Below are positions 20,912 to 34,911 of a stretch of DNA of 43,498 nucleotides, in pieces. The first letter of the stretch is position 1. Each line of letters starts with the position of its first letter. Source of the stretch: Patescibacteria group bacterium (lineage in GTDB: Bacteria; Patescibacteriota; Patescibacteriia; UBA2591; UBA6264); the NCBI GenBank assembly GCA_018896315.1, contig JAHIMV010000081.1, positions 1-43,498 of the forward strand, given 5' to 3'. The translations under genes were made by a program, and so were the position numbers. The notes below the pieces were generated by a model, which was not told the DNA's origin, did not search any database, and saw nothing but the letters and a program-made list of their open reading frames with translations.

Positions 20912-21770
20912 AATACTTGTTTTTGGCATTGGCATACTTTTATTAATTAATTTAATTGTTTTAGGTTATTGGTTTGTTTTGTTTAATGGAAATGTTTCTG
21001 AAGATAGTTTGAAGGTAGTTTTTTTAAATGTTGGACAAGGAGATGCGGCCTTGATTCAGACATCTCAACAAGATATTTTAGTTGATGGAGGTCCTGATAA
21101 AAATATTATTTATAAATTGGATAAGTATATTCCTTTTTATGATAGAGAAATAGACTTGATGATTTTAACTCATTTAGATTCAGACCACTTAACAGGTTTG
21201 GTTGAGGTTTTAAAACGTTATCCAGTTAAGAAAATTATAAGCAATGGATTAAAAAATTATGATTCAATAGCGTTGGAGTGGGAGAGACTAATCCAAGAAA
21301 AAAATATTCCTCAACAAATAGCAGATATTCCTTTAACTATTTTGTTAGATGAGCAAACCTTGATAGAATTTTTATGGCCTAGCCAAGATTTAATTAAAGA
21401 ATCAAAGGGTGATGATAATTTTACTTCTTTAGTTTTTAAATTAACTCATGGAAATAATAAATTTTTGTTTACCGGAGATGTGCCAAAAGAAGTAGAGGAA
21501 ATATTAGCAGCAACAGAGAATGATTTAAAAGCGGACGTTTTAAAGGCTGGCCATCATGGTTCAAAATATTCTTCAACTATGGAATTTTTAAGCAAGGTTA
21601 AGCCTAAATACGGGGTTATTTCTTGCGGTGAGAATAATTTTGGTCATCCTAGTTTGCGGGTTTTAAAAAATTTAGAAAATATTAGGGCGGAGATTTTAAG
21701 AACAGACCAATTAGGAGATGTTATATTTTTAAGTGATGGACAAGAATTAACATTGACATCTAAAAAATAA
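20892..21770 (+). CDS. membrane-anchored metallo-beta-lactamase-fold hydrolase (stand-alone ComEC C-terminal domain)
   Basis: N-terminal TM, then LNVGQGDA, THLDSDH, AGHHGS motifs. Overlaps comEC by 20 nt. Confidence 0.8.
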   Translation: MSIKKFKILVFGIGILLLINLIVLGYWFVLFNGNVSEDSLKVVFLNVGQGDAALIQTSQQDILVDGGPDKNIIYKLDKYIPFYDREIDLMILTHLDSDHLTGLVEVLKRYPVKKIISNGLKNYDSIALEWERLIQEKNIPQQIADIPLTILLDEQTLIEFLWPSQDLIKESKGDDNFTSLVFKLTHGNNKFLFTGDVPKEVEEILAATENDLKADVLKAGHHGSKYSSTMEFLSKVKPKYGVISCGENNFGHPSLRVLKNLENIRAEILRTDQLGDVIFLSDGQELTLTSKK

Positions 21771-21833
21771 ATTGTTATCCTGTTTTTAATTGTAGTTTAT
21801 TTTTAAAATAATATAATAAAAATATATCTGCCC

Positions 21834-21978
21834 ACACCCCAATTTTGCGAGATATGTCATGGCAACGCACTCGCTTCGCTCGGGCTTATTCAGCCACTGC
21901 GTTGAGAGGACTAAACAAGAGATGTTAAAATAATAAAAAATGTTAGCAGAGTTTAAGGTGGCAAAATTGAGGCGGGGT
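21834..21978 (+). repeat. family C ~145-nt element with ACCCC..GGGGT termini upstream of the atypical kinase gene
   Basis: acaccccaattttgc ... ggcaaaattgaggcggggt outer pairing, inner caacgca..tgcgttg stem, followed by the same gctcataattgtaacg leader module as at rplE. Confidence 0.6.
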
Positions 21979-22030
21979 GCTCATAATTGTAACGAAATTT
22001 TTTTCGTTACACTCATAAATTTCGACAATT
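21979..22030 (+). promoter_or_regulatory. leader module L2 (gctcataattg + gtaacgaaat hairpin + caattATG) before the atypical kinase gene
   Basis: gctCATAATTGtaacgaaatttttttcgttacactcataaatttcgaCAATTATG. The 5' cataattg is complementary to caattatg, which contains the start codon. Confidence 0.75.
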
Positions 22031-23122
22031 ATGGCAAAAGAATTTGAAAAAGATTTTCCTTGGTCTTTATCTAAAACTAAAACAGAAGGCTTGAATAAAG
22101 AATTTAATTTAAGCCAATTGTCCAAACGTCATCAATATTTTAAAGCCAAAGTTGGAAAAGAAATTGAAGGACTAAAGCAATATCTTGATAAGAATACTTT
22201 TATTGCTTATTGGTTAGGTAAAAAGAATTCAGGAAAAGGCACTTATTCAAAATTAATGTTAGAAATTTTTGGCAAGGATAGAATTAATCATGTTTCTGTT
22301 GGAGACGTAGTGAGAGAGGCGTGTGAAAAACTAAAAGATCCGAAACAAAGAGAAGAGATAGTTGATTATTTGAAAAAAAATTATCGGGGATATATTTCTG
22401 TTGATGAAGCAGTAGAAAGCATCTTAAATAGAGACACAAAAAGCCTTTTACCCACAGAATTTATTCTTACTTTAGTTAAAAGAGAAATTGATAAAATGCC
22501 CAAAAAGAGCCTTTTTATTGATGGTTTTCCTCGTAATATGGATCAGGTCTCTTATTCTTTGTATTTCAGAGATTTAATCAATTACAGGGAAGATCCAGAT
22601 GTTTTTATTGGAATTGATATCCCTGAGCAAGTAATTGATCAAAGAATGAAATCAAGAGTTGTTTGTCCTAAATGTCATACGCCAAGGAGTTTGAAATTAT
22701 TGCCAACTCAAGAGGTCGGTTATGATCCAGAAAAAAAGGAATTTTATTTAATGTGCGATGATCCAGATTGTGATAAAGCAAGAATGACTGCTAAAGAAGG
22801 AGATAATTTAGGCATTGAATCAATTAGAGAAAGATTAGAGTTAGACGAAAAATTAATAAATAAAATATTTTCTTTACACGGAGTACCAAAGGTTTTATTA
22901 AGAAACGCTTTACCTGTTTCTGAAGCAGAAAAATTAGTAGATAAGTATGAAATAACACCAGAATATGATTATGAATTAATTGAAGAAAATAAAGTACAGA
23001 CGAAAGAAAAACCATGGACAGTAAAAGATGATCAGGGAAGGGAAATTTATAGTCTTTTGGCTCCGCCAGTAGTAGTTTCTTTAATTAAACAGTTGTATAA
23101 CATTTTTGTTGAAAAGAATTAA
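22031..23122 (+). CDS. atypical adenylate-kinase-fold nucleoside monophosphate kinase (363 aa)
   Basis: P-loop GKKNSGKGT, DGFPR motif, Zn-type LID CPKCH..CDDPDC, plus N-terminal (~60 aa) and C-terminal (~100 aa) extensions absent from the canonical adk at 38128. Confidence 0.6.
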   Translation: MAKEFEKDFPWSLSKTKTEGLNKEFNLSQLSKRHQYFKAKVGKEIEGLKQYLDKNTFIAYWLGKKNSGKGTYSKLMLEIFGKDRINHVSVGDVVREACEKLKDPKQREEIVDYLKKNYRGYISVDEAVESILNRDTKSLLPTEFILTLVKREIDKMPKKSLFIDGFPRNMDQVSYSLYFRDLINYREDPDVFIGIDIPEQVIDQRMKSRVVCPKCHTPRSLKLLPTQEVGYDPEKKEFYLMCDDPDCDKARMTAKEGDNLGIESIRERLELDEKLINKIFSLHGVPKVLLRNALPVSEAEKLVDKYEITPEYDYELIEENKVQTKEKPWTVKDDQGREIYSLLAPPVVVSLIKQLYNIFVEKN

Positions 23123-23149
23123 AAGGTTAATTTATTGTGGAAAAGGGCC

Positions 23150-23177
23150 TTGTCAAAGAAAATAAGTATGTTAGAAT
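23150..23177 (+). promoter_or_regulatory. candidate tuf promoter, TTGTCA-16 nt-TAGAAT
   Basis: ttgtca (23150..23155), 16-nt spacer, tagaat (23172..23177). Followed by a tcacgg..ccgtga hairpin and a GAGG Shine-Dalgarno sequence. Confidence 0.45.
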
Positions 23178-23273
23178 TAATGCACATTTAAATAGTCTAC
23201 TTATTAAAATTAATTGATTCACGGTTATAATAATTTGTTAATAAATAAGCCGTGATGAAACGAGGTAATTAAT

Positions 23274-24479
23274 ATGGCAGTAAAAGAAAAATTTGAAAGA
23301 GACAAGCCGCACGTAAATGTTGGTACTATTGGTCATGTTGACCATGGAAAAACTACTTTAACAGCGGCTATGTTAAAATGCTTAAAAGCATCTGGTAAAA
23401 AGGCCGAAGAAAAATCTGTTGATCAAATTGATAATGCTCCAGAAGAAAGAGAAAGGGGTATTACAATTGCTTTAGCTCACTTGGAATATACAACTGATAA
23501 ACGTCATTATGCTCACATTGATTGTCCTGGTCATGCAGACTATATTAAAAACATGATTACTGGGGCGGCACAAATGGATGGCTCAATTTTGGTTATTTCC
23601 GCTACTGACGGACCAATGCCGCAAACAAGAGAGCATATTCTTTTAGCTAGACAGGTTGGAGTTCCGGCAATGATTGTTTATTTAAATAAAACTGACCAAG
23701 TGCAAGACAAGGAATTAATTGAATTAGTCAAAGAAGAAGTTAAAGAATTGCTTAAGAAGTATGAATTTCCTGGCGATGAAATTCCTATTATTGAAGGATC
23801 AGCTTTAAAAGCTTTGGAATGTGGTTGTGGTAAAACAGATTGTCCACATTGCGGTTCAATACTTAAGTTGGTTGAAGTCCTTGATAGCTATATCCCTGAG
23901 CCAAAAAGAGACACTGATAAACCATTTTTAATGCCTATTGAAGACATCTTTACTATTGAAGGCAGAGGAACCGTAGTTACAGGTAAAATTGAAAGAGGAA
24001 TTGTTAAATTAAATGAAGAAATAGAAATTGTTGGATTAAGACCTACTCAAAAAACCGTAGTTACTGGAATTGAAATGTTTAGAAAGTCTTTAGAAGAAGG
24101 AATGGCTGGCGATAACGCCGGTATTCTTTTACGCGGCACTAAAAAAACAGACGTAGAAAGAGGTCAGGTTCTTGCCAAGCCAGGTACGGTTAAACCTCAT
24201 ACTGAGTTTGAAGGAAAAGTTTATATTCTTTCCAAGGAAGAGGGTGGCCGTCATACCCCATTTTTTAAAGGGTATAAGCCACAATTCTATATCCGGACTA
24301 CTGATGTTACTGGTGAAGTAACCTTGCCCGAGGGAACAGAAATGGCCATGCCAGGTGATACACTTAATATTAATGTTAAATTGAATAAGGAAATTGCTTT
24401 AGAAGAACAACAGAGATTTGCCCTTAGAGAAGGTGGCAAAACTGTCGGGGCAGGCGTAGTAACAAAACTCATTAAATAA
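23274..24479 (+). CDS. tuf: elongation factor Tu
   Basis: [23 protein letters not shown] GTPase motifs. GAGG Shine-Dalgarno sequence 8 nt upstream of the ATG. Confidence 0.97.
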
Positions 24480-24604
24480 AAATGCGATACCAATATACTA
24501 ATACATACGAATTATACGAATAATTTGAAGTATTAGTGTGTCGTAATGTTAAATTTGTATTATTAGTATCAATTTGTATATTAGCATTGATTTAGTTCTT
24601 TGTA
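24480..24604. repeat. family D copy 3 (tuf-rpsJ spacer)
   Basis: gcgataccaatatactaatacatacgaattatacgaat ... attagtatcaatttgtatattagcattgat. Confidence 0.8.
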
Positions 24605-24964
24605 ATGACGAAAGAAAAAATTAAGACACAAAAATCAATTAAAAAAGAAGAGGCTAAATACCAGCCGAGAATTCGGATTAAAATTAAATCATATGACCAT
24701 CGAGTTATTGATGAAGCTTTAAAAGGAATTATTGAAGCGATTTCTCGGTCTGGCGCCAAGGTAATTGGCCCGATTTTTCTCCCTACAGAGAAAAAAAAAT
24801 ATACGGTCCTTCGTTCCTCTTTTGTTCATAAAGATTCTCGAGATCAGTTTGAGAAAAGAATTCACAAGAGGTTGCTTGATATTACTGATTTTAATCCCCA
24901 AACATTAGAAACTCTAACTGGCCTTCATTTGCCAGCAGGAGTAGATGTGGAAATTAAAATGTAA
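24605..24964 (+). CDS. rpsJ: 30S ribosomal protein S10 (with ~20-aa Lys-rich N-terminal extension)
   Basis: IRIKIKSYDHRVIDEA..PTEKKKYTVLRS.FVHKDSRDQFE.R.HKRLLDI. First gene of the S10 cluster, after tuf. Confidence 0.9.
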   Translation: MTKEKIKTQKSIKKEEAKYQPRIRIKIKSYDHRVIDEALKGIIEAISRSGAKVIGPIFLPTEKKKYTVLRSSFVHKDSRDQFEKRIHKRLLDITDFNPQTLETLTGLHLPAGVDVEIKM

Positions 24965-24974
24965 AGAGTTTTTT

Positions 24975-25018
24975 CAAAAATTTTAAAGTTGAGATTAGCG
25001 AAACTGCAGAAATTTTTG
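24975..25018 (+). repeat. H1 hairpin module, copy after the rpsJ stop
   Basis: caaaaattt ..agcgaa.. aaatttttg (9-bp stem). Preceded by taa-agag and followed by ttagaaaaccttt plus core A. Confidence 0.7.
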
Positions 25019-25031
25019 TTAGAAAACCTTT

Positions 25032-25089
25032 ACCCTGTTAAATAATTTCGCTTTTAGCGAAATTGCCGCAAGGCGGCATTTAACAGGGT
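25032..25089 (+). repeat. family A Y-shaped 58-nt core, copy a (rpsJ-rplC spacer)
   Basis: accctgttaaat[aatttcgc-tttt-agcgaaatt][gccgc-aag-gcggc]atttaacagggt: a 12-bp outer stem enclosing two hairpins. Confidence 0.9.
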
Positions 25090-25337
25090 TCTCGAAAATC
25101 TAACAAAATTTTCATCGTTCCCTAAACTCGAAAATTTTGAGATTTTCGGAATAATTTGATCAGGGGAAAGCAAGGTTAAAAGTGAACTCTTAAGTTTCAT
25201 AAGAGTTATTGTTTAATCAAACTTTTTCTTAATTTTGAGGTTCAAAATTCTCTAAAGAGATGACAATTTAGTCAAATTTTTCACAGCCAGGCTTAAGGTC
25301 AGAGAAATTTGGTCTCAAACCTGGTTTTTTAATACCT

Positions 25338-25955
25338 ATGAAATTCATTCTTGGGAAAAAAATAGAAATGTCCCAAATTTTTAAAGGGGACAAGGTTATT
25401 CCGGTAACAAAAATTCAAGCCGGCCCTTGTTTGATTACTCAAATTAAAACACAAGAAAAAGACGGTTATGAGGCTATTCAGATTGGATTTGCTAAGAAAA
25501 GAAAGAATACTAAATCATTATTAGGTCATTTAAAAAAGGGTTTAGCTGACAAAGAGTATAATCGATATTTAAAAGAATTTAAAACAGAAAGGGGTGATTT
25601 AAAAATTGGAGATAAGATAAAAGTTGATATTTTTCAACCTGGAGATAAAATAAAGATTGTTGGTACCTCTAAAGGAAAAGGGTTTCAAGGAGTAGTTAAG
25701 CGACATGGTTTTCATGGAGCATCAGCTACACATGGAACCAAAGATCAAGAAAGAATGCCTGGTTCAATTGGAGCCACTGGTCCTGCCAGAGTTTTTAAAG
25801 GAAAAAAAATGCCTGGAAGAATGGGAGGCAAACAAGTTACAGTTAAAATTTTAGAGATTATAGAGGTTAATCCAGAAGAAAATTTATTATTAGTCAAAGG
25901 ATCTGTTCCTGGGGCAAGGAACTCATTATTAGAAATTACTCAAGTAAAATATTAA
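25338..25955 (+). CDS. rplC: 50S ribosomal protein L3
   Basis: ILGKKIEMSQIF.., GKGFQGVVKRHGF, conserved cluster position. Confidence 0.93.
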   Translation: MKFILGKKIEMSQIFKGDKVIPVTKIQAGPCLITQIKTQEKDGYEAIQIGFAKKRKNTKSLLGHLKKGLADKEYNRYLKEFKTERGDLKIGDKIKVDIFQPGDKIKIVGTSKGKGFQGVVKRHGFHGASATHGTKDQERMPGSIGATGPARVFKGKKMPGRMGGKQVTVKILEIIEVNPEENLLLVKGSVPGARNSLLEITQVKY

Positions 25956-26650
25956 TGTTAAAAGTTTCAGTTTACAATCAAGAAGGAAAAGTAATTGGAC
26001 AAGAAGAATTAGATCCTGAAATTTTTGGATTGGAAAGTAAACCTGATTTAATTCATCAAACCGTAGTATCTCTTATGGCTAATCAGCGCCATGCTTTTGC
26101 TCATGTTAAAACTCGTTCAGAAGTACGGGGAGGAGGAAGAAAACCTTGGAGACAAAAGGGGACTGGTCGGGCTCGAGCAGGCACAATTCGTTCACCTTTG
26201 TGGCGGGGCGGTGGAATCACTTTTGGTCCAGATAAAAATAGGAATTATTCTCAGAAAATTAATAGAAAAGCTAAAAGACAAGTGCTTTTTATGTGTCTTT
26301 CTGATAAAGTTAAAGAAGAAAGAATGTATGTTTTGGATAAGTTAGAAATGCCTGAAATCAAAACCAAAAAGTTTACTCAAATTTTATTTAAGTTGATTCC
26401 TGAATATAAAGACAAGACTTCCGCCAAAGGCGGATCCGCCTCCGGCGGAAAAAAAATCCTTTTTGGCTTGCCTGAGAAGGATTTAAATATAATTAGATCT
26501 GTACGAAATATTAAAGGTTTAAAAACTATGCCGATTATTAATTTAAATATTTTAGACTGTTTAAAGGCAGACTATTTATTAACCACTTTAGACGGTGTAA
26601 AAAAAATTCAAGAACATTTTAAAATAGATGGCTCACCATTAAATAAATAA
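25955..26650 (+). CDS. rplD: 50S ribosomal protein L4
   Basis: RSEVRGGGRKPWRQKGTGRARAGTIRSPLWRGGG. ATG overlaps the rplC stop by 1 nt. Contains a GC-rich hairpin pair in frame at 26421..26448. Confidence 0.93.
   Translation: MLKVSVYNQEGKVIGQEELDPEIFGLESKPDLIHQTVVSLMANQRHAFAHVKTRSEVRGGGRKPWRQKGTGRARAGTIRSPLWRGGGITFGPDKNRNYSQKINRKAKRQVLFMCLSDKVKEERMYVLDKLEMPEIKTKKFTQILFKLIPEYKDKTSAKGGSASGGKKILFGLPEKDLNIIRSVRNIKGLKTMPIINLNILDCLKADYLLTTLDGVKKIQEHFKIDGSPLNK
26421..26448 (+). repeat. GC-rich double-hairpin motif inside rplD
   Basis: ccgcc-aaa-ggcgg at ccgcc-tcc-ggcgg, translated SAKGGSASGG. GC-rich island in an AT-rich gene. Confidence 0.75.
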
Positions 26651-26735
26651 AACATGGGAATTTTCACCCAGTTTAGAAATTTAATGGGGTAAAAGAAGTA
26701 ATTGATTGAAAATTAGATATATTAAAAATACTTTT

Positions 26736-27218
26736 ATGGCAGAAAAAAGACTTAAAAAATTTCTAACGGGGTTTAAAAGAAAAATAAAGCCAGCGGTTAA
26801 GAAAGAAGAAGTTAAAAAGGAAAAAGTGGAAAAGGCAAAGGAAATAGAAAAAGATGAGAAAATAGAAGATAAAAAGCAACAGAAATCTAAAACAGAAATA
26901 AAAAAAACTGTTAAAAAATTAATACAAAGACAAGGAGTTGATATCTCAATTTTACTAAGACCAATTATTACAGAAAAAGCAACTGACCAAGAGGTCAAGG
27001 GATGCTATATTTTTGAAGTTAATTCAAAGGCAAACAAAATTTCAATAAAAAAAGCAATTGAACAAATTTACGGAGTCAAACCCTTAAGAGTAAATATTAT
27101 TCGAGTACGTGGGAAAAAAGTAAGATATGGGCGTTCAACAGGTAAAACAAAGGCATGGAAAAAAGCTTTAGTTTTTCTAAAAAAAGGAGATAAGCTGCAG
27201 TTTGTGCAGAAATCCTAA
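26736..27218 (+). CDS. rplW: 50S ribosomal protein L23 with ~70-aa Lys/Glu-rich N-terminal extension
   Basis: L23 core ILLRPIITEKA..FEV...ANK..IK.A.E..YGVKP..VN begins about residue 75. First ATG is at 26736 (track start 26706 is TTG). Confidence 0.85.
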   Translation: MAEKRLKKFLTGFKRKIKPAVKKEEVKKEKVEKAKEIEKDEKIEDKKQQKSKTEIKKTVKKLIQRQGVDISILLRPIITEKATDQEVKGCYIFEVNSKANKISIKKAIEQIYGVKPLRVNIIRVRGKKVRYGRSTGKTKAWKKALVFLKKGDKLQFVQKS

Positions 27219-27395
27219 ATAATAAATAACAAATAACAAACAATATCCAATGACCAAAATCCAAATGACCAAAACAAATACGTTTAGAATTTAGAATTTT
27301 GCCCCGGCCTTCGTAGCCGAAGCTACTTCGGCGGAGTAGGCAATTTGTTTAGAATTTGGTGCTTGGTGTTTGGAATTTGGAGCGAAGCGACTATT
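27219..27395. repeat. structured spacer (rplW-rplB) ending in the gagcgaagcga..ATG motif
   Basis: ccaaaatccaaatgaccaaaacaaat versus atttgtttagaatttggtgcttggtgtttggaatttgg arms, GC hairpins in the centre. 3' end ggagcgaagcgactattATG resembles 830..849. Confidence 0.55.
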
Positions 27396-28238
27396 ATGCT
27401 TAAAATATCTAAACCAACAACTCCAGGTAGGAGAAAAATGAGCGTGGTTGATACTAGTGGACTATCAAAAGTGAGACCATTAAAGAAATTGGTTAGTATA
27501 AGAAAACAAAAAGCAGGCCGAAGCAAAGGAAAGATTACTGTTCGTCACCAAGGCGGGGGAGAAAAAAGATTTTACAGAAAGATTGATTTTAGGCAAGATA
27601 AATTTGATATCCCGGCGAAAGTTAAAACATTGGAATATGATCCAAATCGTTCTGCTTGGATTGCTTTATTACATTATACGGACGGAGAAAAGAGATATAT
27701 ACTTGCTCCGCACAGTCTTAAAGTAGGTGATGAGATTATTAGTTCAAAAAAGAAGATTGATGCAAAATTAGGCCATCGCATGCCTTTAAAATACATTCCA
27801 GTGGGCATGGCCATTCACAATATAGAATTAATGCCAAATCAAGGTGGAAAAATTGTTCGTTCGGCTGGTAATTCAGCTATTTTAATGGTTGTGAATGATG
27901 GGTTTGCGCAAATTAAACTGCCCTCATCTGAAAGAAGGCTTGTTAAAGAAGATTGTTTAGCTAGTTGCGGTCAGGTTAGTAATCCAGAGTGGCGATTTAT
28001 TCGCTGGGGAAAAGCTGGTAGGATGCGTCATAGAGGAATTAGACCTTCAGTTCGCGGTAAAGCAATGGCCCCAGTGGCTCATCCACACGGTGGAGGAGAG
28101 GGTAATTCACCTATTGGTTTAAAAAATCCTAAAACCCCTTGGGGAAAACCAGCCTTAGGGCCAAAGACTAGAAAAAAGAAAAAATGGACTAATAAATATA
28201 TTGTCCAAAGAAGAATTAAAAAAAGAAGAAAAAAGTAA
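27396..28238 (+). CDS. rplB: 50S ribosomal protein L2
   Basis: MLKISKPTTPGRRKMS.., HPHGGGEG. The track ORF start 27345 lies inside the upstream repeat, so the internal ATG at 27396 was chosen. Confidence 0.93.
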   Translation: MLKISKPTTPGRRKMSVVDTSGLSKVRPLKKLVSIRKQKAGRSKGKITVRHQGGGEKRFYRKIDFRQDKFDIPAKVKTLEYDPNRSAWIALLHYTDGEKRYILAPHSLKVGDEIISSKKKIDAKLGHRMPLKYIPVGMAIHNIELMPNQGGKIVRSAGNSAILMVVNDGFAQIKLPSSERRLVKEDCLASCGQVSNPEWRFIRWGKAGRMRHRGIRPSVRGKAMAPVAHPHGGGEGNSPIGLKNPKTPWGKPALGPKTRKKKKWTNKYIVQRRIKKRRKK

Positions 28239-28248
28239 AGGGCTTTCT

Positions 28249-28282
28249 TAAAAATTTCAAGTTGTAGACGTAGAAATTTTTA
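28249..28282 (+). repeat. H1 hairpin module, copy after the rplB stop
   Basis: taaaaatttc .. gaaattttta (10-bp stem, different sequence, same position). Preceded by taa-agggcttt. Confidence 0.7.
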
Positions 28283-28295
28283 TTAGAAAACCTTT

Positions 28296-28353
28296 ACCCT
28301 GTTAAATAATTTGTAAAGCAAATTAAAAATCAAAAATTTTTGTTTAACAGGGT
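28296..28353 (+). repeat. family A core, copy b (rplB-rpsS spacer), divergent inner hairpins
   Basis: Same outer stem accctgttaaa..tttaacagggt. Both inner hairpins are replaced by different self-complementary sequences (aatttg-taaag-caaatt; aaaaat-caa-aaattttt). Confidence 0.85.
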
Positions 28354-28383
28354 GCTCGAAAATTAATAAATTAATTTTTTCGC
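28354..28383 (+). promoter_or_regulatory. leader module L1 (gctc + AT palindrome + ttcgc-ATG) before rpsS
   Basis: gctcgaaaattaataaattaattttttcgc then ATG. No SD-like purine tract. Confidence 0.8.
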
Positions 28384-28680
28384 ATGGGAAGAAGTTTGAA
28401 AAAAGGACCTTGGGTTGACCCAAGATTACTCAAAAAAATTTCCAATTTAAAAAGAGGAGATAAAACAATAATTAAAACCTGGTCACGTAATTCAACAATT
28501 ACTCCGGAAATGATTGGTTTTACAATTGGGGTCCATAATGGTAAGACACATTTATCAGTATTTATTGTTGAAAATATGGTCGGGCACAAGCTTGGAGAAT
28601 TTTCTCCGACCAGAAAATTTGTCAAACATGGAGGTAAGATGCAAAGAGGATTAGAAGCAGCCGTTAAGAAATCAAAATAA
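28384..28680 (+). CDS. rpsS: 30S ribosomal protein S19
   Basis: [34 protein letters not shown]. Confidence 0.95.
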
Positions 28681-28883
28681 TCCCTCACCCTTTGGCGATA
28701 ATACTTCGCATTAGTGCTTCGCATTTTTAAACAAGTGTATTTAAAATTAAAAATAAAAAATCAAAATGCAAAATTTAGGTATCAAAAATTTTTCTTGAAA
28801 ATTTTTGATGATTGTATTTTATTTAATTTTAACATTTTTAATTGTCATTTTGATATTTGATATTTACATTTTACATTTATATT
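28681..28883. repeat. AT-rich long-hairpin spacer (rpsS-rplV), E-like
   Basis: Central 11-bp hairpin atcaaaaattt/aaatttttgat (28781..28809) flanked by an A-rich left arm and a quasi-complementary T-rich right arm (..ttttaattgtcattttgatattt). Confidence 0.6.
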
Positions 28884-29438
28884 ATGCAAGTAAAAGCTAA
28901 AGGAAAATATTTAAGAATATCCAGTAAAAAGATGAGGCTGGTAACAGACCTAATTAGAGGAATGGACTTAAAAGATGCCTTAGATTCTTTAAATTTTGTT
29001 CCTAAAAAGTCAGCCCGTTTTATTAACAAGGTTTTAAAGTCAGCTTTAGCTAATGCAGAACATAATTTTGATTTAAAAAAAGAAAATCTTTTTATTAAAG
29101 AAATTTTTGTTAATGAAGGGCCTACTCTTAAGAGATGGAGGCCAAGAGCTTTTGGTCGGGCCGGACAGGTTCGTAAAAGAAGCTCACATTTAGAAATTAT
29201 TTTAGGGGAAAAAATTCCTAGTTCAGAGACCAGATCTGTTAAAACAAAAATTAAAGAACCAATAATTGAATCTATTTCTAAAGATAAGATTGAAGAAAAA
29301 AAGCCGGTGGAAGAAACAGAAGAAGAAACGTTAAATCGACTTCAAGGAAAACATCAATCTAAACCAAATTATTACCAAAAAAAGGGTAAAGGGTTTAGAG
29401 GGAGTTTAAAAAAGATTTTTAGAAGAAAAACTATATAA
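28884..29438 (+). CDS. rplV: 50S ribosomal protein L22 with ~70-aa C-terminal extension
   Basis: MQVKAKGKYLRISSKKMRLV.DLIRG..V..AL..L.F, RA.GRA..VRKR.SH. Internal ATG at 28884 chosen over the track start 28857. Confidence 0.88.
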   Translation: MQVKAKGKYLRISSKKMRLVTDLIRGMDLKDALDSLNFVPKKSARFINKVLKSALANAEHNFDLKKENLFIKEIFVNEGPTLKRWRPRAFGRAGQVRKRSSHLEIILGEKIPSSETRSVKTKIKEPIIESISKDKIEEKKPVEETEEETLNRLQGKHQSKPNYYQKKGKGFRGSLKKIFRRKTI

Positions 29439-29448
29439 AGAGCTTTGT

Positions 29449-29481
29449 CTGAAATTTGGAGAACTAGCGAACAAATTTCAG
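29449..29481 (+). repeat. H1 hairpin module, copy after the rplV stop
   Basis: ctgaaatttg ..agcgaa.. caaatttcag (10-bp stem). Preceded by taa-agagctttgt. Confidence 0.7.
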
Positions 29482-29494
29482 TAACAAAACCTTT

Positions 29495-29622
29495 ACCCAG
29501 CACTTATTTTGCGAAGCAAAAACAAAATTTTATATATAACAAGATAAGATAGGTTTATTTCTCGCGAAAGAGCGTTAAAACACTCTTTCGCTAAGACTCA
29601 CTTGGCAGAATAAGTGCTGGGT
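29495..29622 (+). repeat. family B element, copy 2 (rplV-rpsC spacer), diverged
   Basis: Same termini (acccagcacttatt / aataagtgctgggt) and the same inner gcgaaagag hairpin, with several substitutions and indels. Confidence 0.85.
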
Positions 29623-29687
29623 GCTCAAATTTGTAACGAAATTTCCTTCGTTACTTCGTAACTCGTAAATTTAGACAAATTTAGCAT
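29623..29687 (+). promoter_or_regulatory. leader module L2 variant before rpsC
   Basis: gctcaaatttgtaacgaaatttccttcgttac...gacaaatttagcat then ATG. 5' caaatttg and 3' caaattt co-vary relative to the other copies. Confidence 0.7.
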
Positions 29688-30332
29688 ATGGGAAGAAAAG
29701 TAAATCCAAAAATTTTCCGTATTCCCTTAATCAGAGATTGGGAATCAAAGTGGTTTGCAAAAAAGCACGAATTTAAACGATTCTTAAAAGAGGATATACA
29801 GATTAGAGAGTTTTTATCAAAAAGACTAAAGAATTGTGGTATTTCTAATATTAGTATTGAAAGGTTGGCTAATATTATAAGAATCAGCATATCCACTGGT
29901 AAGCCTGGATTAATTATTGGTCGAGGAGGTCTTGATATTGAAAAATTAAAAAAAGAATTAAAAGTTTTTGTCAGCGATGGAATTGTTTTAGAAGTTAATG
30001 TTATTGAAGAGAAAAAACCAATGCTTTCCGCTGATGTGATTTTAGAAGGAGCAATTGCTGATTTAGAAAAAAGGTTTCCTTTCCGTCGAGTGATGAAAAA
30101 AGTTATTAGACAGGCTAAAACAAGCGAGGCCAAAGGAATGAAAATCATCCTTAGCGGACGTTTGGGGGGAGTTGAGATTTCTCGATCAGAAAAATTGATT
30201 TGGGGGAACTTACCGCTTCATACTTTGCGAGCAGACATTGATTATGCTCGTGGCACAGCCGCAACAACATATGGTTCAATCGGAGTTAAAATCTGGGTTT
30301 ATCGAGGAGAAAAATTTAGTAATTCTGTCTGA
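29688..30332 (+). CDS. rpsC: 30S ribosomal protein S3
   Basis: MGRKVNPKIFRI..W.SKWFA, KH domain GKPGLIIGRGG, GRLGG.EI.R.E. Confidence 0.95.
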   Translation: MGRKVNPKIFRIPLIRDWESKWFAKKHEFKRFLKEDIQIREFLSKRLKNCGISNISIERLANIIRISISTGKPGLIIGRGGLDIEKLKKELKVFVSDGIVLEVNVIEEKKPMLSADVILEGAIADLEKRFPFRRVMKKVIRQAKTSEAKGMKIILSGRLGGVEISRSEKLIWGNLPLHTLRADIDYARGTAATTYGSIGVKIWVYRGEKFSNSV

Positions 30333-30378
30333 TATTTTTAAGTCCAGAGGACGTAGAAAATTCAGCTACAGAATTGCT

Positions 30379-30508
30379 ACCCAGCACTTATTTTGCGAAA
30401 CAGAAACAAAATTTTATATATATAACAAGGTAAAATAAGTTTATTTTTCGCGAAAGAGCGTTAAAACACTCTTTCGCCAAGACATACCTAGCAAAATAAG
30501 TGCTGGGT
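30379..30508 (+). repeat. family B element, copy 3 (rpsC-rplP spacer)
   Basis: Reads identically to 7747..7876. Confidence 0.9.
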
Positions 30509-30539
30509 GCTCAAAAATTAATAAATTAATTTTTTTCGC
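30509..30539 (+). promoter_or_regulatory. leader module L1 before rplP
   Basis: gctcaaaaattaataaattaatttttttcgc then ATG. Confidence 0.8.
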
Positions 30540-30959
30540 ATGTTAATGCCCAAGAAACAAAAGTATAGAAAGAGCCACAAAGGAAGAAGGAGAACAAAAA
30601 GTCAAGCAACAAGGGGAACTACGGTTAGTTTTGGTGATTTTGGATTAAAAACATTAGAGCATCGTTGGATCACTGCTCGTCAAATTGAGACGGTGCGCCG
30701 AACACTTACCCGAGTATTTAAAAAAAGAGGAAAGATTTGGATTAGAATTTTTCCTAATAAACCAGTTACGGCTAAAAGTTCAGAGATTCCTATGGGCGGG
30801 GGTAAAGGAGCGGTTGACCACTATGTCGTTGCGGTAAAACCAGGAATGATTCTTTTTGAGGTCACCGGAATTGATAAAGAATCGGCCCAAAAAGCGTTTA
30901 AAGCAGCTTCATATAAATTGCCAGTGAAAACTAAGTTTGTTAGCAAAGATAATATTTAA
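30540..30959 (+). CDS. rplP: 50S ribosomal protein L16
   Basis: MLMPKKQKYRK.HKGR.., RWITARQIE..RR.LTR, MGGGKG. Confidence 0.95.
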   Translation: MLMPKKQKYRKSHKGRRRTKSQATRGTTVSFGDFGLKTLEHRWITARQIETVRRTLTRVFKKRGKIWIRIFPNKPVTAKSSEIPMGGGKGAVDHYVVAVKPGMILFEVTGIDKESAQKAFKAASYKLPVKTKFVSKDNI

Positions 30960-30962
30960 AAA

Positions 30963-31148
30963 ATGAAGACAGAGGAACTTAAACCAAAAACAAAAAAAGA
31001 ACTGGAAAGATTGTTAGAAGATTCTAGGGAAAAACTACGTAATCTACATTTTGATATTCAAATGAAGCAGTCAAAAAATGTAAGGGAAATAAGAAAAGCA
31101 AAGAAATTAATTGCTAAAATACTTACATTTATTAATCAAAAAAATTAA
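30963..31148 (+). CDS. rpmC: 50S ribosomal protein L29
   Basis: 61 aa, LKPKTKKELERLLEDSREKLRNLHF, conserved position between rplP and rpsQ. Confidence 0.85.
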   Translation: MKTEELKPKTKKELERLLEDSREKLRNLHFDIQMKQSKNVREIRKAKKLIAKILTFINQKN

Positions 31149-31149
31149 T

Positions 31150-31401
31150 ATGGCCAAAAAAAGATTTCAAGGAGTAGTGACTAGTGATAAGATGGATAAA
31201 ACCATTGTTGTTATGATAAATCGGACAAAGGTGCATCCTATCTATAAAAAGAGATATCAGGTTAGTAAAAAATATAAAGTTCATGATCAGAAAAATGAAG
31301 CTAAAATTGGTGATCAAGTTACTTTTGAGGAATGCAGACCTTTGTCAAAAGATAAAAAGTGGAGATTAATAACGATTTTGTCTGAAAAAGCGAGCTCGTA
31401 G
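31150..31401 (+). CDS. rpsQ: 30S ribosomal protein S17
   Basis: MAKKRFQGVVTSDKMDKTIVV......HPIYKKR...SKKYKVHD..N.A.IGD.V...E.RPLSK.K.W. ATG at 31150 (the track start 31111 overlaps rpmC). Confidence 0.92.
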   Translation: MAKKRFQGVVTSDKMDKTIVVMINRTKVHPIYKKRYQVSKKYKVHDQKNEAKIGDQVTFEECRPLSKDKKWRLITILSEKASS

Positions 31402-31430
31402 AGCGAAGGTTTTTTGGTAACAAAATCGTT

Positions 31431-31488
31431 ACCCTGTTAAATAATTTCGCTAAAAGCGAAATTGCCGCAGGGCGGCATTTAACAGGGT
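31431..31488 (+). repeat. family A core, copy c (rpsQ-rplN spacer)
   Basis: As copy a, but the loop of hairpin 1 is aaaa instead of tttt and hairpin 2 is gccgc-agg-gcggc. Confidence 0.9.
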
Positions 31489-31518
31489 GCTCAAAAATTA
31501 ATAAATTAATTTTTTCGC
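31489..31518 (+). promoter_or_regulatory. leader module L1 before rplN
   Basis: gctcaaaaattaataaattaattttttcgc then ATG. aaaaattaat/attaattttt is a 10-bp self-complement. Confidence 0.8.
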
Positions 31519-31890
31519 ATGATTCAACCGGAAACAAGACTAAAAGTTATTGATAACACTGGAGCTAAAGAAATACAGTGTATTCGCGTTTTAGGCGGTT
31601 ATAGGAAGAGATATGCTCGTATTGGTGATATTATTACAGCGACAATTAAAAAAGCTGTTCCTCACACTTCAGTAAAAAAAGGAGAGGTGATTCATGCGGT
31701 TATTGTTAGAACAAAAAAAGAAACTCGTCGGGCCAATGGTGTTTATATCAGATTTGATGATAATGCCGCGGTGATTGTTGATAGAAAGACTAAAGAACCA
31801 AAAGGAGGTAGAGTTTTTAGTGTTGTTGCTAGAGAATTAAGAAAAAAAGGTTTTACCAAGATCGTCTCTTTAGCCCCCGAAGTACTTTAG
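31519..31890 (+). CDS. rplN: 50S ribosomal protein L14
   Basis: [27 protein letters not shown]...RYA.IGD.I. Confidence 0.96.
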
Positions 31891-31949
31891 TGATTTTATC
31901 TGATAAAATCGAGGCCGCCGGGCGAAGATTTTTCAGCTACAAAATCGCT

Positions 31950-32007
31950 ACCCTGTTAAATAATTTCGCTTTTAGCGAAATTGCCGCAAAGCGGCATTTA
32001 ACAGGGT
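31950..32007 (+). repeat. family A core, copy d (rplN-rplX spacer)
   Basis: accctgttaaataatttcgcttttagcgaaattgccgcaaagcggcatttaacagggt. Confidence 0.9.
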
Positions 32008-32037
32008 GCTCAAAAATTAATAAATTAATTTTTTCGC
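32008..32037 (+). promoter_or_regulatory. leader module L1 before rplX
   Basis: Identical to the rplN copy. Confidence 0.8.
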
Positions 32038-32346
32038 ATGAAAATAAAAAAAGGTGACACAGTACAAATAATTAATGGTAAAGATAAAGGAAAAAAGGGG
32101 AAAGTGATCCGATCTTTACTTAAAGAAGGCAAGATAGTTGTTGAGGGTTTAAATGTGGTAACTAAGCATGTTCGGCCAAAAAAATCTGGAGAAAAGGGAC
32201 AAAGAATCAAGATGGCTACCCCTTTGTATGTTTCAAAGGTAATGTTGATTTGTCCTCATTGCAAAAAAAGAGTTAGAGTGGGATACAAAATTTTAACTGA
32301 TAATAGAAAAAAAAGAATTTGTCGAAAATGTAAAGATATAATATAA
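32038..32346 (+). CDS. rplX: 50S ribosomal protein L24 (C-terminal CxxC..CxxC)
   Basis: MKIKKGDTVQIINGKDKGKKGKV (KOW motif). C-terminus CPHCKKRVRVGYK...RICRKCKD. Confidence 0.92.
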   Translation: MKIKKGDTVQIINGKDKGKKGKVIRSLLKEGKIVVEGLNVVTKHVRPKKSGEKGQRIKMATPLYVSKVMLICPHCKKRVRVGYKILTDNRKKRICRKCKDII

Positions 32347-32356
32347 AGGGCTTTGT

Positions 32357-32392
32357 CTAAATTTTGGAGTCCGAAGGGCGAACAAAATTTGG
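32357..32392 (+). repeat. H1 hairpin module, copy after the rplX stop
   Basis: ctaaattttg ..ggcgaa.. caaaatttgg. Preceded by taa-agggctttgt. Confidence 0.7.
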
Positions 32393-32405
32393 TAACAAAA
32401 CCTTT

Positions 32406-32463
32406 ACCCTGTTAAATAATTTCGCTTTTAGCGAAATTGCCGCAGGGCGGCATTTAACAGGGT
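32406..32463 (+). repeat. family A core, copy e (rplX-rplE spacer)
   Basis: accctgttaaataatttcgcttttagcgaaattgccgcagggcggcatttaacagggt. Confidence 0.9.
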
Positions 32464-32520
32464 GCTCATAATTGTAACGAAATTTATTTCGTTACGAGTA
32501 ACTTATAAATTTCGATAATT
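32464..32520 (+). promoter_or_regulatory. leader module L2 before rplE
   Basis: gctCATAATTgtaacgaaatttatttcgttacgagtaacttataaatttcgatAATTATG. Confidence 0.75.
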
Positions 32521-33069
32521 ATGGCAGATTTAAAGCAAATATATTTAAAAAAAGTTGTTCCAGAATTAGTCAAAAAATTTGATTATCAGAACAAGATGGC
32601 TGTTCCTAAGATAGAAAAAATTGTTGTTAATTCTGGATTAAGTCGTGGAACTACAGAGAAAAATTCTAAATATGTTGACATGGTTAGTCAGACAATTGCT
32701 AAAATTACAGGACAACAGCCAGTTAAAAATTTAGCAAAAAAATCAATTGCTGGTTTTAAAATTAGAGAAGGAATGCCAGTTGGCGTAAGTACAACTCTGC
32801 GAGGCCCGAAAATGTATAATTTTCTAGATAAATTAATTAATATTGCTTTACCAAGAATAAGAGATTTTAGAGGACTAAAAAAACAGAGTATTGATCAACA
32901 GGGTAATTTATCAATCGGTTTTAAAGAGCAGGTAGTTTTTCCAGAGATTAATCAGGAAAATCTTGAATCAACCCATGGTTTACAAGTAGTGATTACAACA
33001 ACAACTCAAAGTAAAGAAAAGGCATTAGAATTATTTAAATTATTAGGATTTCCCTTTAGAAAAGAATAA
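32521..33069 (+). CDS. rplE: 50S ribosomal protein L5
   Basis: LKQIYLKKVVPEL.KKF.Y.N.M.VPKIEKIVVN.G.., LP.IRDFRGL. Confidence 0.95.
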   Translation: MADLKQIYLKKVVPELVKKFDYQNKMAVPKIEKIVVNSGLSRGTTEKNSKYVDMVSQTIAKITGQQPVKNLAKKSIAGFKIREGMPVGVSTTLRGPKMYNFLDKLINIALPRIRDFRGLKKQSIDQQGNLSIGFKEQVVFPEINQENLESTHGLQVVITTTTQSKEKALELFKLLGFPFRKE

Positions 33070-33078
33070 ATTTGACAT

Positions 33079-33264
33079 ATGGCAACTAAAGGACAAGTAG
33101 TTAAATCAAATAAAGAGCCTAAATATCGGACACGAAAAGTACGACGTTGTTGGCGTTGCGGAAGAAGACATGGCTATATGAGAGAATTTGATGTTTGTCG
33201 CATTTGCTTTAGAGAATTAGCAACTAAGGGGGCAATCCCAGGTATAAGAAAATCATCTTGGTAA
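33079..33264 (+). CDS. rpsN: 30S ribosomal protein S14, type Z (zinc form)
   Basis: 61 aa with [23 protein letters not shown]. Confidence 0.93.
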
Positions 33265-33402
33265 GATAAAAATTCAAATATCAAAAATTAAAAATCAAAA
33301 TGACATATCAAAATCTAAAATTAATAAATAATAAAAATTATCCCGAAGGGATACCTAAATTTTGCATTTTGCATTTTGCATTTTGCATTTAACGAAACGT
33401 TT
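33265..33402. repeat. AT-rich long-hairpin spacer (rpsN-rpsH), E-like
   Basis: Left arm atcaaaaattaaaaatcaaaatgac.., central tatccc-gaa-gggata hairpin (33339..33353), right arm four tandem ttttgca units. Confidence 0.6.
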
Positions 33403-33807
33403 ATGACTGATCCAATTGCCGACATGCTAACAAGAGTTCGTAATGCTTTGGCTATTAAAAAACCAGAGATAGTTTTGCCTTATTCCAAGGTTAAGTTTAA
33501 TATTGCTAAAGTATTAGAAAAAGAAAAATTGATTGAAAAAGTGGAAATAATTGATGCGGCGAAAAGTAAAACAGGATTTAAGCAGTTAAAAATTAAATTA
33601 AAGTACAATGAAGACAATCAACCAGTTATTGGTACTTTAAAAAGAATCAGCAGCCCAGGTCAACGTATTTATGTTAAAAAAGATAAAATTCCCAAAGTTT
33701 TAAATGGTTTGGGAATGAATATTTTATCTACCTCTAAAGGCTTAATGACCGGACAAGAAGCTAGAGAGAAGGGTTTAGGAGGAGAATTAATTTGTGAAAT
33801 ATGGTAA
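33403..33807 (+). CDS. rpsH: 30S ribosomal protein S8
   Basis: MTDPIADMLTRVRNAL... Internal ATG at 33403 chosen; the track start 33376 lies in the ttttgca tandem repeat. Confidence 0.93.
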   Translation: MTDPIADMLTRVRNALAIKKPEIVLPYSKVKFNIAKVLEKEKLIEKVEIIDAAKSKTGFKQLKIKLKYNEDNQPVIGTLKRISSPGQRIYVKKDKIPKVLNGLGMNILSTSKGLMTGQEAREKGLGGELICEIW

Positions 33808-34074
33808 CGCGATACCAATATACGAATGCATGCGAATGATACGAATAAAGCACACGAATAGTAAAACATAATGCTAATCTACGAATGTATGCGAATGCTA
33901 CGAATTACGAATAAAGCGCGCAAATTATTATTCGCGTCATTCGCGTGAATTAGCGTATTAGTGTCGCTACTTTTAACACAACATGAATGCGCCCACACGA
34001 ATATTAGTATAATCAGTATCCATTCGTATATTAGCATCGATTAAATTAATTCGTATATTAGCATCGATATTATT
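33808..34074. repeat. family D copy 4 (rpsH-rplF spacer), expanded, 267 nt
   Basis: cgcgataccaatatacgaatgcatgcgaatgatacgaat ... attcgtatattagcatcgat duplicated in tandem at the 3' end. Many acgaat/attcg units. Confidence 0.8.
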
Positions 34075-34623: not shown

Positions 34624-34911
34624 AAAAATCAAAAATCAAAAATCAAAAATCAAAATTATTTTATTAAAAAATCAAAAAAGAACAAGTTCCTCTCAAGCGA
34701 GAGTAAAATGGAAAACGTAAAAAGGAATTGCTGATTGCCGATTGTTGATTGTTTGGAAAGATAGACAAAGGTTTCAATTAGCAATTAACAATTAAGACTA
34801 GTTTTTAATTTTTACATTTTAATTTGTCATTTTACATTTTGATGGTTCGACTTTGCTCACCATCAATCCTGAGCGTAGTCGAAGGATTGATATTTAAATT
34901 TTACATTTTCT
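34624..34911 (+). repeat. family E element, copy 1 (rplF-rplR spacer), carrying a nested 50-nt hairpin element
   Basis: (aaaatc)n left arm, centre gaacaagttcctctcaagcgagag..aattgctgattgccgattg..caattagcaattaacaatt, right arm tttacattttaatttgtcattttacattttga. Confidence 0.85.
34841..34890 (+). repeat. 50-nt hairpin element nested in family E copy 1
   Basis: gatggttcgactttgctcaccatcaatcctgagcgtagtcgaaggattga. Absent from the otherwise collinear copy 2 (..ccattttga|tatttaaatt..). ttga occurs on both sides. Confidence 0.9.

Follow-up and report, generated by a model that had tools for sequence, protein, structure and literature searches.

A Conserved Start-Codon Hairpin, Probably the Leader-Side Module of Fold-Back Intergenic Repeats in Patescibacteria

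Introduction

Is a leader that can fold in two mutually exclusive ways around a start codon, and that recurs almost unchanged before different genes of one bacterium, a translational switch for those genes? The question is raised by a 43,498-nt stretch of Patescibacteria DNA (contig JAHIMV010000081.1 of assembly GCA_018896315.1, positions 1 to 43,498; hereafter, the window), in which a leader element that we call L2 precedes rpsC, rplE, and a gene for a 363-amino-acid (aa) ADK-like protein, the "atypical kinase" of the first-pass annotation. That annotation read the element as a switch or operator. The window has a GC content of 31% and carries all its genes on the + strand; homologues of its S3 protein, the closest 92% identical, place the source among the Patescibacteria (Parcubacteria-like).

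Comparison across genomes indicates that L2 is a real, structure-conserved hairpin that buries the start codon and is conserved on the sense strand. We consider it probable that L2 is the start-codon-side module (60 to 70 nt) of a modular fold-back intergenic repeat and doubles as a portable leader lacking a Shine–Dalgarno (SD) sequence. On our best reading, the repeat resembles REPINs or miniature inverted-repeat transposable elements (MITEs) and is carried by a clade of Patescibacteria (Parcubacteria-like).

Results

Sequence Variation Supports One Extended Stem-Loop

The three leaders were found where they had been described, as near-identical copies on the + strand at 21977–22036 (copy 1, before the ADK-like gene), 29621–29691 (copy 2, before rpsC), and 32462–32526 (copy 3, before rplE), with covariance-model scores of 75.3, 89.7, and 77 bits. 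Their shared core, GTAACGAAATTTNNTTCGTTAC, occurs three times on the + strand of the window against 0.01 expected by chance. Predicted folding energies are −16.4, −12.9, and −18.9 kcal/mol for copies 1, 2, and 3, with z-scores of −6.5, −2.0, and −5.5 relative to dinucleotide shuffles (200 per copy). The expectation that the leaders would fold better than shuffled sequence was borne out for the kinase and rplE copies, whose native energies were reached by 0/200 shuffles, and is marginal for the rpsC copy (8/200). In the minimum-energy fold, a CATAATTG/CAATTATG helix stacks on a CGAAAUUU/AAAUUUCG helix to form an extended stem; the local GTAACGAA/TTCGTTAC hairpin that had been proposed is not part of it.

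The complementarity noticed earlier between cataatt and aattatg is exact in the kinase copy, where CATAATTG and CAATTATG are perfect complements, and includes one G·U pair in the rplE copy. Both partners do change together in the rpsC copy, in which CAAATTTG pairs with CAAATTT through two compensatory changes relative to the other copies. The position of the start codon depends on the variant. Copies 1 and 3 are of the CATAATT variant: The basal helix of copy 1, GUGC(U)CAUAAUUG/CAAUUAUGGCA, encloses the AUG at 22031–22033 and an inserted GCA codon at 22034–22036, and that of copy 3 holds the AUG at 32521–32523 and an inserted GCA at 32524–32526. Copy 2, of the AAATTT variant, has a basal helix closing at ..UUUAGCAU, which the AUG at 29688–29690 abuts. 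The description of a start codon within the helix thus fits the CATAATT copies but not the rpsC copy, whose AUG lies just 3′ of it; across the family, the AUG is inside the helix in the CATAATT form and partly inside or directly abutting it in AAATTT forms.

Further copies were gathered in two scans with the hairpin core, the first of GTDB genome contigs and the second of JGI metagenome contigs, which together yielded about 45 members of the L2 family and a few unrelated terminator-like palindromes; the latter (L002/L040, L003, L005/L037/L048, L008/L024, L010/L054, L034/L041/L045, and L055) were rejected as family members. The alignment comprised 40 distinct copies, drawn from the window and from about 35 contigs of metagenomes or metagenome-assembled genomes. 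The 8-pair helix described earlier is 92.5% paired in these copies, against 22 to 56% when the 3′ partner is slid, with compensatory changes at five pairs; the 5′/3′ helix as a whole is 91 to 92% paired, against 22 to 61% after sliding the partner by one to three columns. The basal helix in fact comprises 12 pairs with one bulge (91% paired), and 7 of the 12 show compensatory changes. Loss of the 5′/3′ complementarity in additional copies, which would have refuted the first-pass reading, was thus not observed. No shuffle in 500 matched the covariation score of the 12-pair helix, one pair of which is split between GC (17 copies) and AU (15 copies). The helix variants are CATAATT/AATTATG, CAAATTT/AAATTTG, CAAAATT/AATTTTG, CATGTTT/AAACATG, CGAATTT/AAATTCG, and GAAATT/AATTTC.

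The basal helix is longer than the 8 pairs described earlier because the sequence GU(R)C(U)C, 3′ of the preceding hairpin, pairs with the GG(Y)AU of ..GGYAUG; in CATAATT copies, the second codon, GCA, is also paired, with UGC. At the Fpg gene, which starts AUGCCA and whose product requires proline as residue 2, the 5′ strand changes from GC to GG to match, giving GG..CC rather than GC..GC.

The two alternative helices, H1 (local, GUAACGAA/UUCGUUAC) and H2 (long-range, CGAAAUUU/AAAUUUCG), indeed cannot form at the same time, and their energies are close. When the 40 copies were folded under constraint, the median difference was −2.45 kcal/mol in favor of H2: H2 led by more than 2 kcal/mol in 21 copies, 13 copies had the two within 2 kcal/mol, and H1 was better in 6. 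The basal helix is kept under both folds, and forcing H1 or H2 left the same number of AUG bases paired in nearly all copies. Because the AUG is paired either way, alternative folding does not open or close the start codon, and the part of the earlier proposal that required gating falls away.

Most copies had been collected by exact match to H1, so the invariance of H1 in that set is uninformative; seven diverged copies were added with a profile hidden Markov model and a covariance model. With these, 12 of 20 pairs show compensatory changes, including 4 of 8 in H2 (CG to UA, GC to AU), and the H2 covariation scores were reached by 0/500 shuffles. The same substitutions that are compensatory in H2 disrupt H1. 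Covariation in H1 was equaled by 44 to 83 of 500 shuffles, and 5 of 21 sequences no longer form its G18–C29 pair; the copy of relative L061 carries one H1 change, A-U to G-C, that is compensatory. Variation thus supports one extended stem-loop, to which the local hairpin is a physically possible alternative that does not gate the start codon.

Two further, diverged copies in the window, both on the + strand, preserve the extended stem. At 7875–7939 (48.4 bits), before a CvpA-like gene with its ATG at 7937, double changes from CG to UA maintain the stem while the local hairpin is degraded. The copy at 25088–25156 (58.9 bits) lies about 180 nt upstream of the rplC ATG, and hence not beside a start codon; its compensatory changes preserve all 12 basal pairs and a 10-bp H2.

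L2 Precedes Unrelated Genes and Lies in Inserted Cassettes

L2 was found upstream of at least 25 unrelated housekeeping genes, including those for S3, S7, L5, L14, L24, L27, GroEL, DnaK, GlmS, TopA, FtsZ, MreB, a PilC-like protein, Fpg, and RecR. Of 42 distinct contexts, 40 have an open reading frame (ORF) that begins at the expected ATG; the remaining two are a tandem duplication, in its first unit, and a decayed copy whose ATG has become ATA. The orientation of L2 is strictly that of the downstream gene. Such diversity of downstream genes rules out a gene-specific operator, and the earlier proposal of a switch for the three genes is further contradicted by a sister genome, L060, in which the module is missing before them.

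L060 encodes an S3 protein 91% identical to that of the window and is collinear with it between prfA and secY, with 86.9% nucleotide identity across 16.2 kb; the alignment is interrupted exactly at the segments that we call cassettes, whose 3′ part is L2 or an alternative leader, L1. Where these stand in the window, the gaps in L060 are short: 4 nt (taaTATTatg) vs. 249 nt for rplV>rpsC, 16 vs. 174 nt for rplX>rplE, 51 vs. 260 nt between the MBL-fold and ADK-like genes, 8 vs. 207 nt for rpsC>rplP, 9 vs. 117 nt for rpsQ>rplN, and 9 vs. 145 nt for rplB>rpsS. Since the junctions are empty in a collinear relative, the alignment indicates that the cassettes are insertions filling the gap between stop and start codons.

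The covariance model detected no L2 in L060, L062, or L064–L067, and the distant relatives L061–L067 have L2 at one junction or none, with different modules in the same junctions in L061 and L063. L2 is about 90% identical between genomes whose S3 proteins are just 55 to 64% identical, which implies strong constraint or horizontal spread. Phage origin was considered and rejected: A scan of viral contigs returned two unrelated palindromes.

The Cassettes Are Modular and Predicted to Fold Back

Directly 5′ of every L2 copy, with no linker, stands a GC-clamped hairpin ending in ..GGG(A)U (HP-B), and all of the approximately 45 collected copies are preceded by ..GGG(A)U(R)C(U)C. The interior of HP-B is of several unrelated kinds, with types A, B, and C in the window and others elsewhere. 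At operon junctions, a further hairpin (HP-A), with the pattern UAAAG(R)G(Y)UUUGU...ACAAAACCUUUA, lies 5′ of HP-B and starts with the stop codon of the upstream gene. In reverse complement, HP-A is matched by the L2 covariance model along its length, at 22 to 40 bits (up to 39.9 bits, E ~4e-5); cassettes that carry the alternative leader L1, or that lack HP-A, have no such matching ends. By this model comparison, HP-A appears to be an inverted L2-like module, so that the layout is inverted unit, spacer hairpin, direct unit.

In the window, copy 1 follows a type C HP-B (21830–21978, +), a long GC-clamped hairpin GCCCACACCCCAAUUUUGC ... GGCAAAAUUGAGGCGGGG; this cassette has no HP-A and keeps the native AT-rich spacer upstream. 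The rpsC cassette comprises an HP-A at 29436–29495 (+), running from the rplV stop codon as UAA AGAGCUUUGUCUGAAAUUUGG ... CAAAUUUCAGUAACAAAACCUUUA, and a type B HP-B at 29496–29621 (+), CCCAGCACUUAU ... AUAAGUGCUGGG. The rplE cassette has an HP-A at 32344–32406 (+), beginning at the rplX stop codon and matched by the L2 model on the − strand at 32339–32407 (29.1 bits, E 0.0086), and a type A HP-B at 32407–32462 (+), a three-way junction of CCCUGUUAAAU, two small hairpins, and AUUUAACAGGG. Of the diverged copies, that at 7875–7939 follows a type B HP-B at 7748–7875 (+), and that at 25088–25156 has its own HP-A and HP-B (25033–25088).

Other units end in L1, a simpler AU hairpin terminating in CGC-AUG. 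Upstream of rpsS, a type A HP-B and L1 occupy 28297–28383 (+), with a AAAAUUAAU..AUUAAUUUU hairpin followed by CGC-AUG; similar units lie at 30380–30539 (rplP), 31432–31518 (rplN), 31951–32037 (rplX), and 36495–36583 (secY), and all five are missing from L060. Ten HP-B-plus-leader units occur in these 43 kb, in the combinations A+L1, A+L2, B+L1, B+L2, and C+L2; such mixing implies that the modules reassort.

Whole cassettes fold with z-scores of −8.4 (rpsC) and −8.1 (rplE) relative to shuffles. The rplE cassette is predicted to fold as three abutting hairpins and the rpsC cassette as a single giant fold-back in which HP-A pairs with L2; the individual hairpins are each about 20 to 25 bp with internal loops. 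A helix between the 5′ end of HP-A and the 3′ end of L2 showed only a shared TTTGTCT/AGACAAA heptamer, with no covariation by eye.

The 3′ boundary of a cassette is always the ATG. The CATAATT form brings its own ATG-GCA and adds one codon, so that the ADK-like gene reads ATGGCAAAAGAA in the window vs. ATGAAAGAA in L060 and rplE reads ATGGCAGATTTA vs. ATGGATTTA; the rplC copy of L061 has the same extra GCA codon. The 5′ boundary is loose. The final codons of S3 have given way to HP-A, and the protein is 214 aa long in the window vs. 224 aa in L060 and in three full-length matches at 91 to 92% identity; S17 and L15 likewise end in codons formed by HP-A. The insert at the ADK-like gene is bordered by a CTG/ATG pair.

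The interior of HP-B sometimes encodes a GIY-YIG nuclease of 70 to 89 aa: in L019/L020/L028, before a membrane-protein gene, and in L061 at 2492–2704, between rplW and rplB. At L058 5285–5434, just before mreB, a degenerate GIY-YIG copy sits in an insert that consists of HP-B only and has duplicated TATG flanks. GIY-YIG is not a known transposase. As a separate observation, a GIY-YIG ORF at L046 227–415 lies beside a tRNA gene whose 5′ part is duplicated (GCCCTTATAGCTCAAC), as integration into a tRNA gene would produce.

On other contigs, L2 is preceded by a short ATCCCG..CGGGAT hairpin, and sigma-70-like hexamers, such as TTGACA-17-TAAAAT in L036, stand upstream of that hairpin; in L036/L039, a type C HP-B follows this promoter-like sequence. 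With such hexamers upstream of HP-B, L2 lies in the 5′ untranslated region (5′UTR) and is not itself a promoter.

One locus shows a cassette in duplicate. In L032 (145–426, minus strand), a whole 194-nt cassette of HP-A, HP-B, and L2 is tandemly repeated with ATGGCAAAGATAAAGAG at each junction, and in L020, at the orthologous locus, the 17-nt GTATGGCAAAAATAAAG stands on both sides of the cassette. The flanking repeat is consistent with originally overlapping genes.

Genomic Context and Neighboring Repeats

By Pfam annotation, the window opens with tpiA, fba, four tRNAs, tuf, an unknown ORF, a TP-methylase gene, metG, and the CvpA-like gene; continues with a 2526-aa NrdD with inteins, a radical-SAM protein, HtrA, prfA, comEC, the MBL-fold protein, the ADK-like protein, and a second tuf; and ends with the S10/spc ribosomal protein operon through secY, adk, and map. 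Most junctions of that operon are unusually long here, at 110 to 370 nt, and are packed with repeats.

SD-like motifs are rare, standing before about 4 of 40 window genes (the unknown ORF at 1800, tuf at 23274, adk at 38128, and possibly rplB), and none was found in any L1 or L2 leader of the window. In L060, many ribosomal protein genes are 3 to 9 nt apart and lack an SD, as do the empty junctions. Taken together, few SD motifs and SD-less short gaps point to SD-independent, coupled translation as the native state.

Two unrelated repeat families also fill junctions. One consists of short TACGAAT/ATACGAA-type repeats ending in ..ATTAGCATCGAT..ATG exactly at start codons (5354–5441, 8438–8534, 24480–24604, 33808–34074, 38800–38869, and 42836–42985) and is missing from the same junctions in L060, for example S8>L6, with 267 nt in the window vs. 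4 nt. The other has runs of AAAATCAAAAATC, then a GAACAAGTTCCTCGCAAGCGAGAG hairpin, and then a TTTTACATTTT..ATG leader (28740–28856, 33270–33375, 34624–34911, 35278–35499, and 37862–38127); it occupies the L6>L18, L18>S5, and secY>adk junctions, the first two of which measure 13 and 4 nt in L060. A small GAACCTTTCGCTTCGCTCAAGAACCTTGAAATTAAA-type element is present at 6117–6178 and 16116–16257, at L3>L4 and S19>L22 in L060, where some junctions carry copies that the window lacks, and in L025, where it interrupts an L2 module, standing between CAAATTTGTAA and GTAACGAAATTT with a possible GTAA duplication.

The rpsJ>rplC spacer downstream of the diverged copy (25152–25337) is conserved over about 185 nt in L060, L061, and L063, independently of cassettes. 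It ends just 5′ of the rplC ATG in a terminator-like hairpin with a U-run (AACCTGGTTTTTTTAATAC) and has no Rfam match; we regard it as a candidate ribosomal-protein attenuator or leader.

Elsewhere in the window, nrdD (8535–16115) encodes an anaerobic ribonucleotide reductase with an ATP-cone and several inteins bearing LAGLIDADG homing endonuclease domains, which explain D19 and D20, its internal direct repeats; the next gene encodes a radical-SAM (activase-like) protein. Both tuf genes (EF-Tu) are full length: That at 2792–3946 follows the tRNA cluster, in which a small L33-like ORF (~2499–2657) stands between tRNA genes, and that at 23274–24479 lies upstream of rpsJ.

Discussion

We favor the reading of L2 as the leader module of a mobile-element-like, fold-back intergenic repeat. 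A full cassette would consist of HP-A, with the upstream stop codon as its 5′ foot, an HP-B of variable interior that sometimes holds a GIY-YIG gene, and leader L1 or L2. Within the mRNA, the transcribed L2 would fold into one long stem-loop holding or abutting the AUG and would serve as a portable 5′ leader lacking an SD. The structure may be kept because the cassette must fold back on itself: Fold-back would hold stop and start codons close together and make the insert tolerable, and it may also serve the mobility of the element. Initiation would then require melting of the AU-rich helix, perhaps by ribosomes with the help of S1, as on the structured, SD-less rpsA leader (PMC10931766), or else by ribosomes coming off the cistron upstream. 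On this account, L2 is not a ligand- or protein-operated switch for particular genes.

Several observations weigh against this reading. The genes concerned are essential and highly expressed, and efficient initiation on them is difficult to square with an AUG under a helix as stable as −13 to −23 kcal/mol. The copy at 25088–25156 is structured without a start codon, so AUG masking is not the sole reason for the fold, and promoter-proximal copies, having no upstream cistron, argue against a pure coupling model. A strand preference in the form of more G·U than A·C pairs on the sense strand is suggestive but only about 2:1 (31 vs. 16), and it comes mostly from one pair. For mobility, no recognizable transposase was found in the window, nor was a RAYT (Y1 transposase) gene among its ORFs annotated with Pfam, and comparing the end of the upstream gene with the start of the downstream gene at 19 cassettes revealed no general target-site duplication: The mean longest common substring was 6.6, vs. 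5.3 in controls, and the sole locus with a 16- to 19-nt repeat (L020/L032) is ascribed to originally overlapping genes plus tandem duplication. The RNA-level role is deduced from sequence, and selection may act on the hairpins at the DNA level alone.

That last alternative, a selfish repeat of the REP/REPIN or MITE kind whose hairpins serve as single-stranded DNA or cruciform substrates while the RNA fold and AUG masking are tolerated side effects, is a serious rival, though the less likely reading. Presence/absence polymorphism fits it, as do the GIY-YIG genes within HP-B, the TATG-flanked HP-B-only insert in L058, and the diverged copy that is structured though not beside an ATG; the inverted L2-like HP-A flanks a spacer as in REPINs (PMC3116915). 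Selection at the DNA level alone sits less well with an orientation that is strictly gene-like, with the 40 of 42 contexts that abut an ATG, with G·U pairs twice as frequent as A·C on the sense strand, and with pairing that reaches the second codon and changes with it, as in the GG..CC of Fpg. DNA-level selection and the leader-module reading are not mutually exclusive.

A processing or stability cassette, in which an RNase III-type or other enzyme would cut the polycistronic mRNA at the hairpins, leaving protective hairpins at the new 3′ and 5′ ends, shortening or removing the leader of the downstream cistron, and so freeing the AUG, is in our judgment doubtful. Cleavage would resolve the paradox of an occluded AUG on essential genes, the hairpins of about 20 to 25 bp have internal loops, and processing of this sort is known for Correia and ERIC repeats; however, no cleavage site is identifiable in the sequence, and the distance from helix to AUG differs by 0 to 5 nt between variants. 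We think it unlikely that these are an undescribed class of mobile intercistronic cassettes that home to stop/start junctions of translationally coupled genes, bringing hairpins of their own for the stop and start sides and even an ATG-GCA. As closed hairpins without single-stranded linkers, they would let a ribosome that terminates at the upstream stop re-initiate, or be shunted, over 100 to 300 nt to the AUG in the L2 helix. If true, this would be a bacterial counterpart of ribosome shunting and would explain how the most conserved bacterial operon withstands repeated invasion.

A promoter cassette in the manner of Neisseria REP2, in which L2 would carry a −10-like TAAATT and drive the downstream gene, is very unlikely. 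The motif (C/T)(G/A)TAAATTT is nearly invariant 9 to 16 nt before the ATG, and L1 with a type A HP-B does give TTAACA-17-TAAATT. That is the only combination to do so, however; L2 has no consistent −35, and a sigma-70 scan found promoter-like sites in the region unenriched (72 vs. 62.5 ± 8.5). TAAATTT is, moreover, the 3′ strand of the covarying H2, and covariation between the 5′ arm and the AUG region implies a shared transcript.

Highly improbable, finally, is a gene-specific switch or operator whose alternative hairpins expose or hide the AUG for a ribosomal protein, a metabolite, or temperature: Although the AUG sits in a covarying helix, the folds are near-isoenergetic in a third of the copies, and the high conservation of the hairpin sequence across genomes could mean binding of a trans-acting factor, the AUG is paired in both folds, the local hairpin covaries no better than shuffles, the same module precedes many unrelated genes and is missing at these genes in the sister genome, and Rfam offers no match.

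No known RNA family matched at either threshold. Rfam 15 at the gathering threshold returned only the 4 tRNAs in the window, and in E-value mode, over 21700–38200, only three chance-level miRNA/snoRNA matches with E above 2. We found no description of such cassettes in the literature on Patescibacteria intergenic repeats, SD usage, and GIY-YIG genes with MITEs.

Among known systems, the cassettes share features with several. The L2 cassette is small, non-coding, multi-copy, and presence/absence polymorphic (with empty sites in L060), as expected of a MITE. Correia (NEMIS), ERIC, and BOX elements, fold-back repeats of 100 to 300 bp, are transcribed together with flanking genes and affect the structure and processing of the mRNA or its expression; they resemble L2 in folding back and in being polymorphic between strains but occur in either orientation, have clear terminal inverted repeats and (Correia) a TA duplication, and supply no start codon. 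RNA thermometers and operators such as fourU and ROSE occlude the initiation region with an AU-rich helix, as L2 does, and groEL and dnaK are among its carriers; L2 is, however, far more stable (−13 to −23 kcal/mol) and mostly on non-heat-shock genes. T4 seg/mob genes are free-standing GIY-YIG homing endonuclease genes between conserved phage genes, a likeness in that a small GIY-YIG gene occupies an intergenic slot and is present or absent between relatives. The GIY-YIG proteins of the cassettes differ in being only ~70 to 90 aa long, without a DNA-binding domain and enclosed in a hairpin, and most cassettes carry no gene.

The closest described systems are Neisseria REP2 and Borrelia IR-A/IR-B, whose dispersed, stem-loop-bearing copies provide many genes with a 5′UTR and an ATG (PMC3184786). 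By their description, they are, like L2, intergenic and directly upstream of many unrelated ORFs, whose start codon is joined to the repeat (PMC3184786). A promoter and a ribosome binding site are part of REP2, which lacks terminal inverted repeats (PMC3184786), whereas L2 has no SD and no convincing promoter; L2 also differs in its inverted L2-like hairpin upstream, its stop-to-start position in operons, and its base-paired AUG. REP, BIME, and REPIN elements are short imperfect palindromes arranged as inverted pairs around a spacer, mosaic, extragenic, present in many copies, and spreading within genomes; REPINs and BIMEs are mobilized by RAYT tyrosine transposases and have no fixed relation to start codons (PMC3116915, PMC2817692). 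The L2 cassette shares with REPINs the inverted palindromic units around a spacer, foldable into one long hairpin, but has no GTAG head, keeps a fixed orientation, abuts the ATG precisely, and encloses a small GIY-YIG nuclease as its sole gene. The E. coli rpsA leader is efficient without an SD, has a specific conserved fold, and needs S1 on AU-rich RNA for initiation (PMC10931766). It resembles L2 in its successive hairpins next to the AUG and lack of a canonical SD; it is, however, a single-gene, vertically inherited, autoregulatory leader, whereas L2 is inserted in many copies and shows no sign of a repressor.

The S10/spc operon is among the most compact and conserved of bacterial gene arrays, yet more than 12 of its junctions here hold structured inserts of 110 to 290 nt that are missing from L060. 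Those with L2 supply the leader of the downstream gene, its start codon, and an extra alanine codon, and they place the AUG in a covarying helix with no SD. Such repeats inflate intergenic distances and alter protein termini (S3, S17, L5, and the kinase-like protein), and they will mislead gene callers and RNA-motif searches in Patescibacteria genomes. They also amount to a natural experiment on two fronts: translation initiation and coupling in SD-poor, reduced-genome bacteria, and selfish DNA evolving harmlessness inside essential operons.

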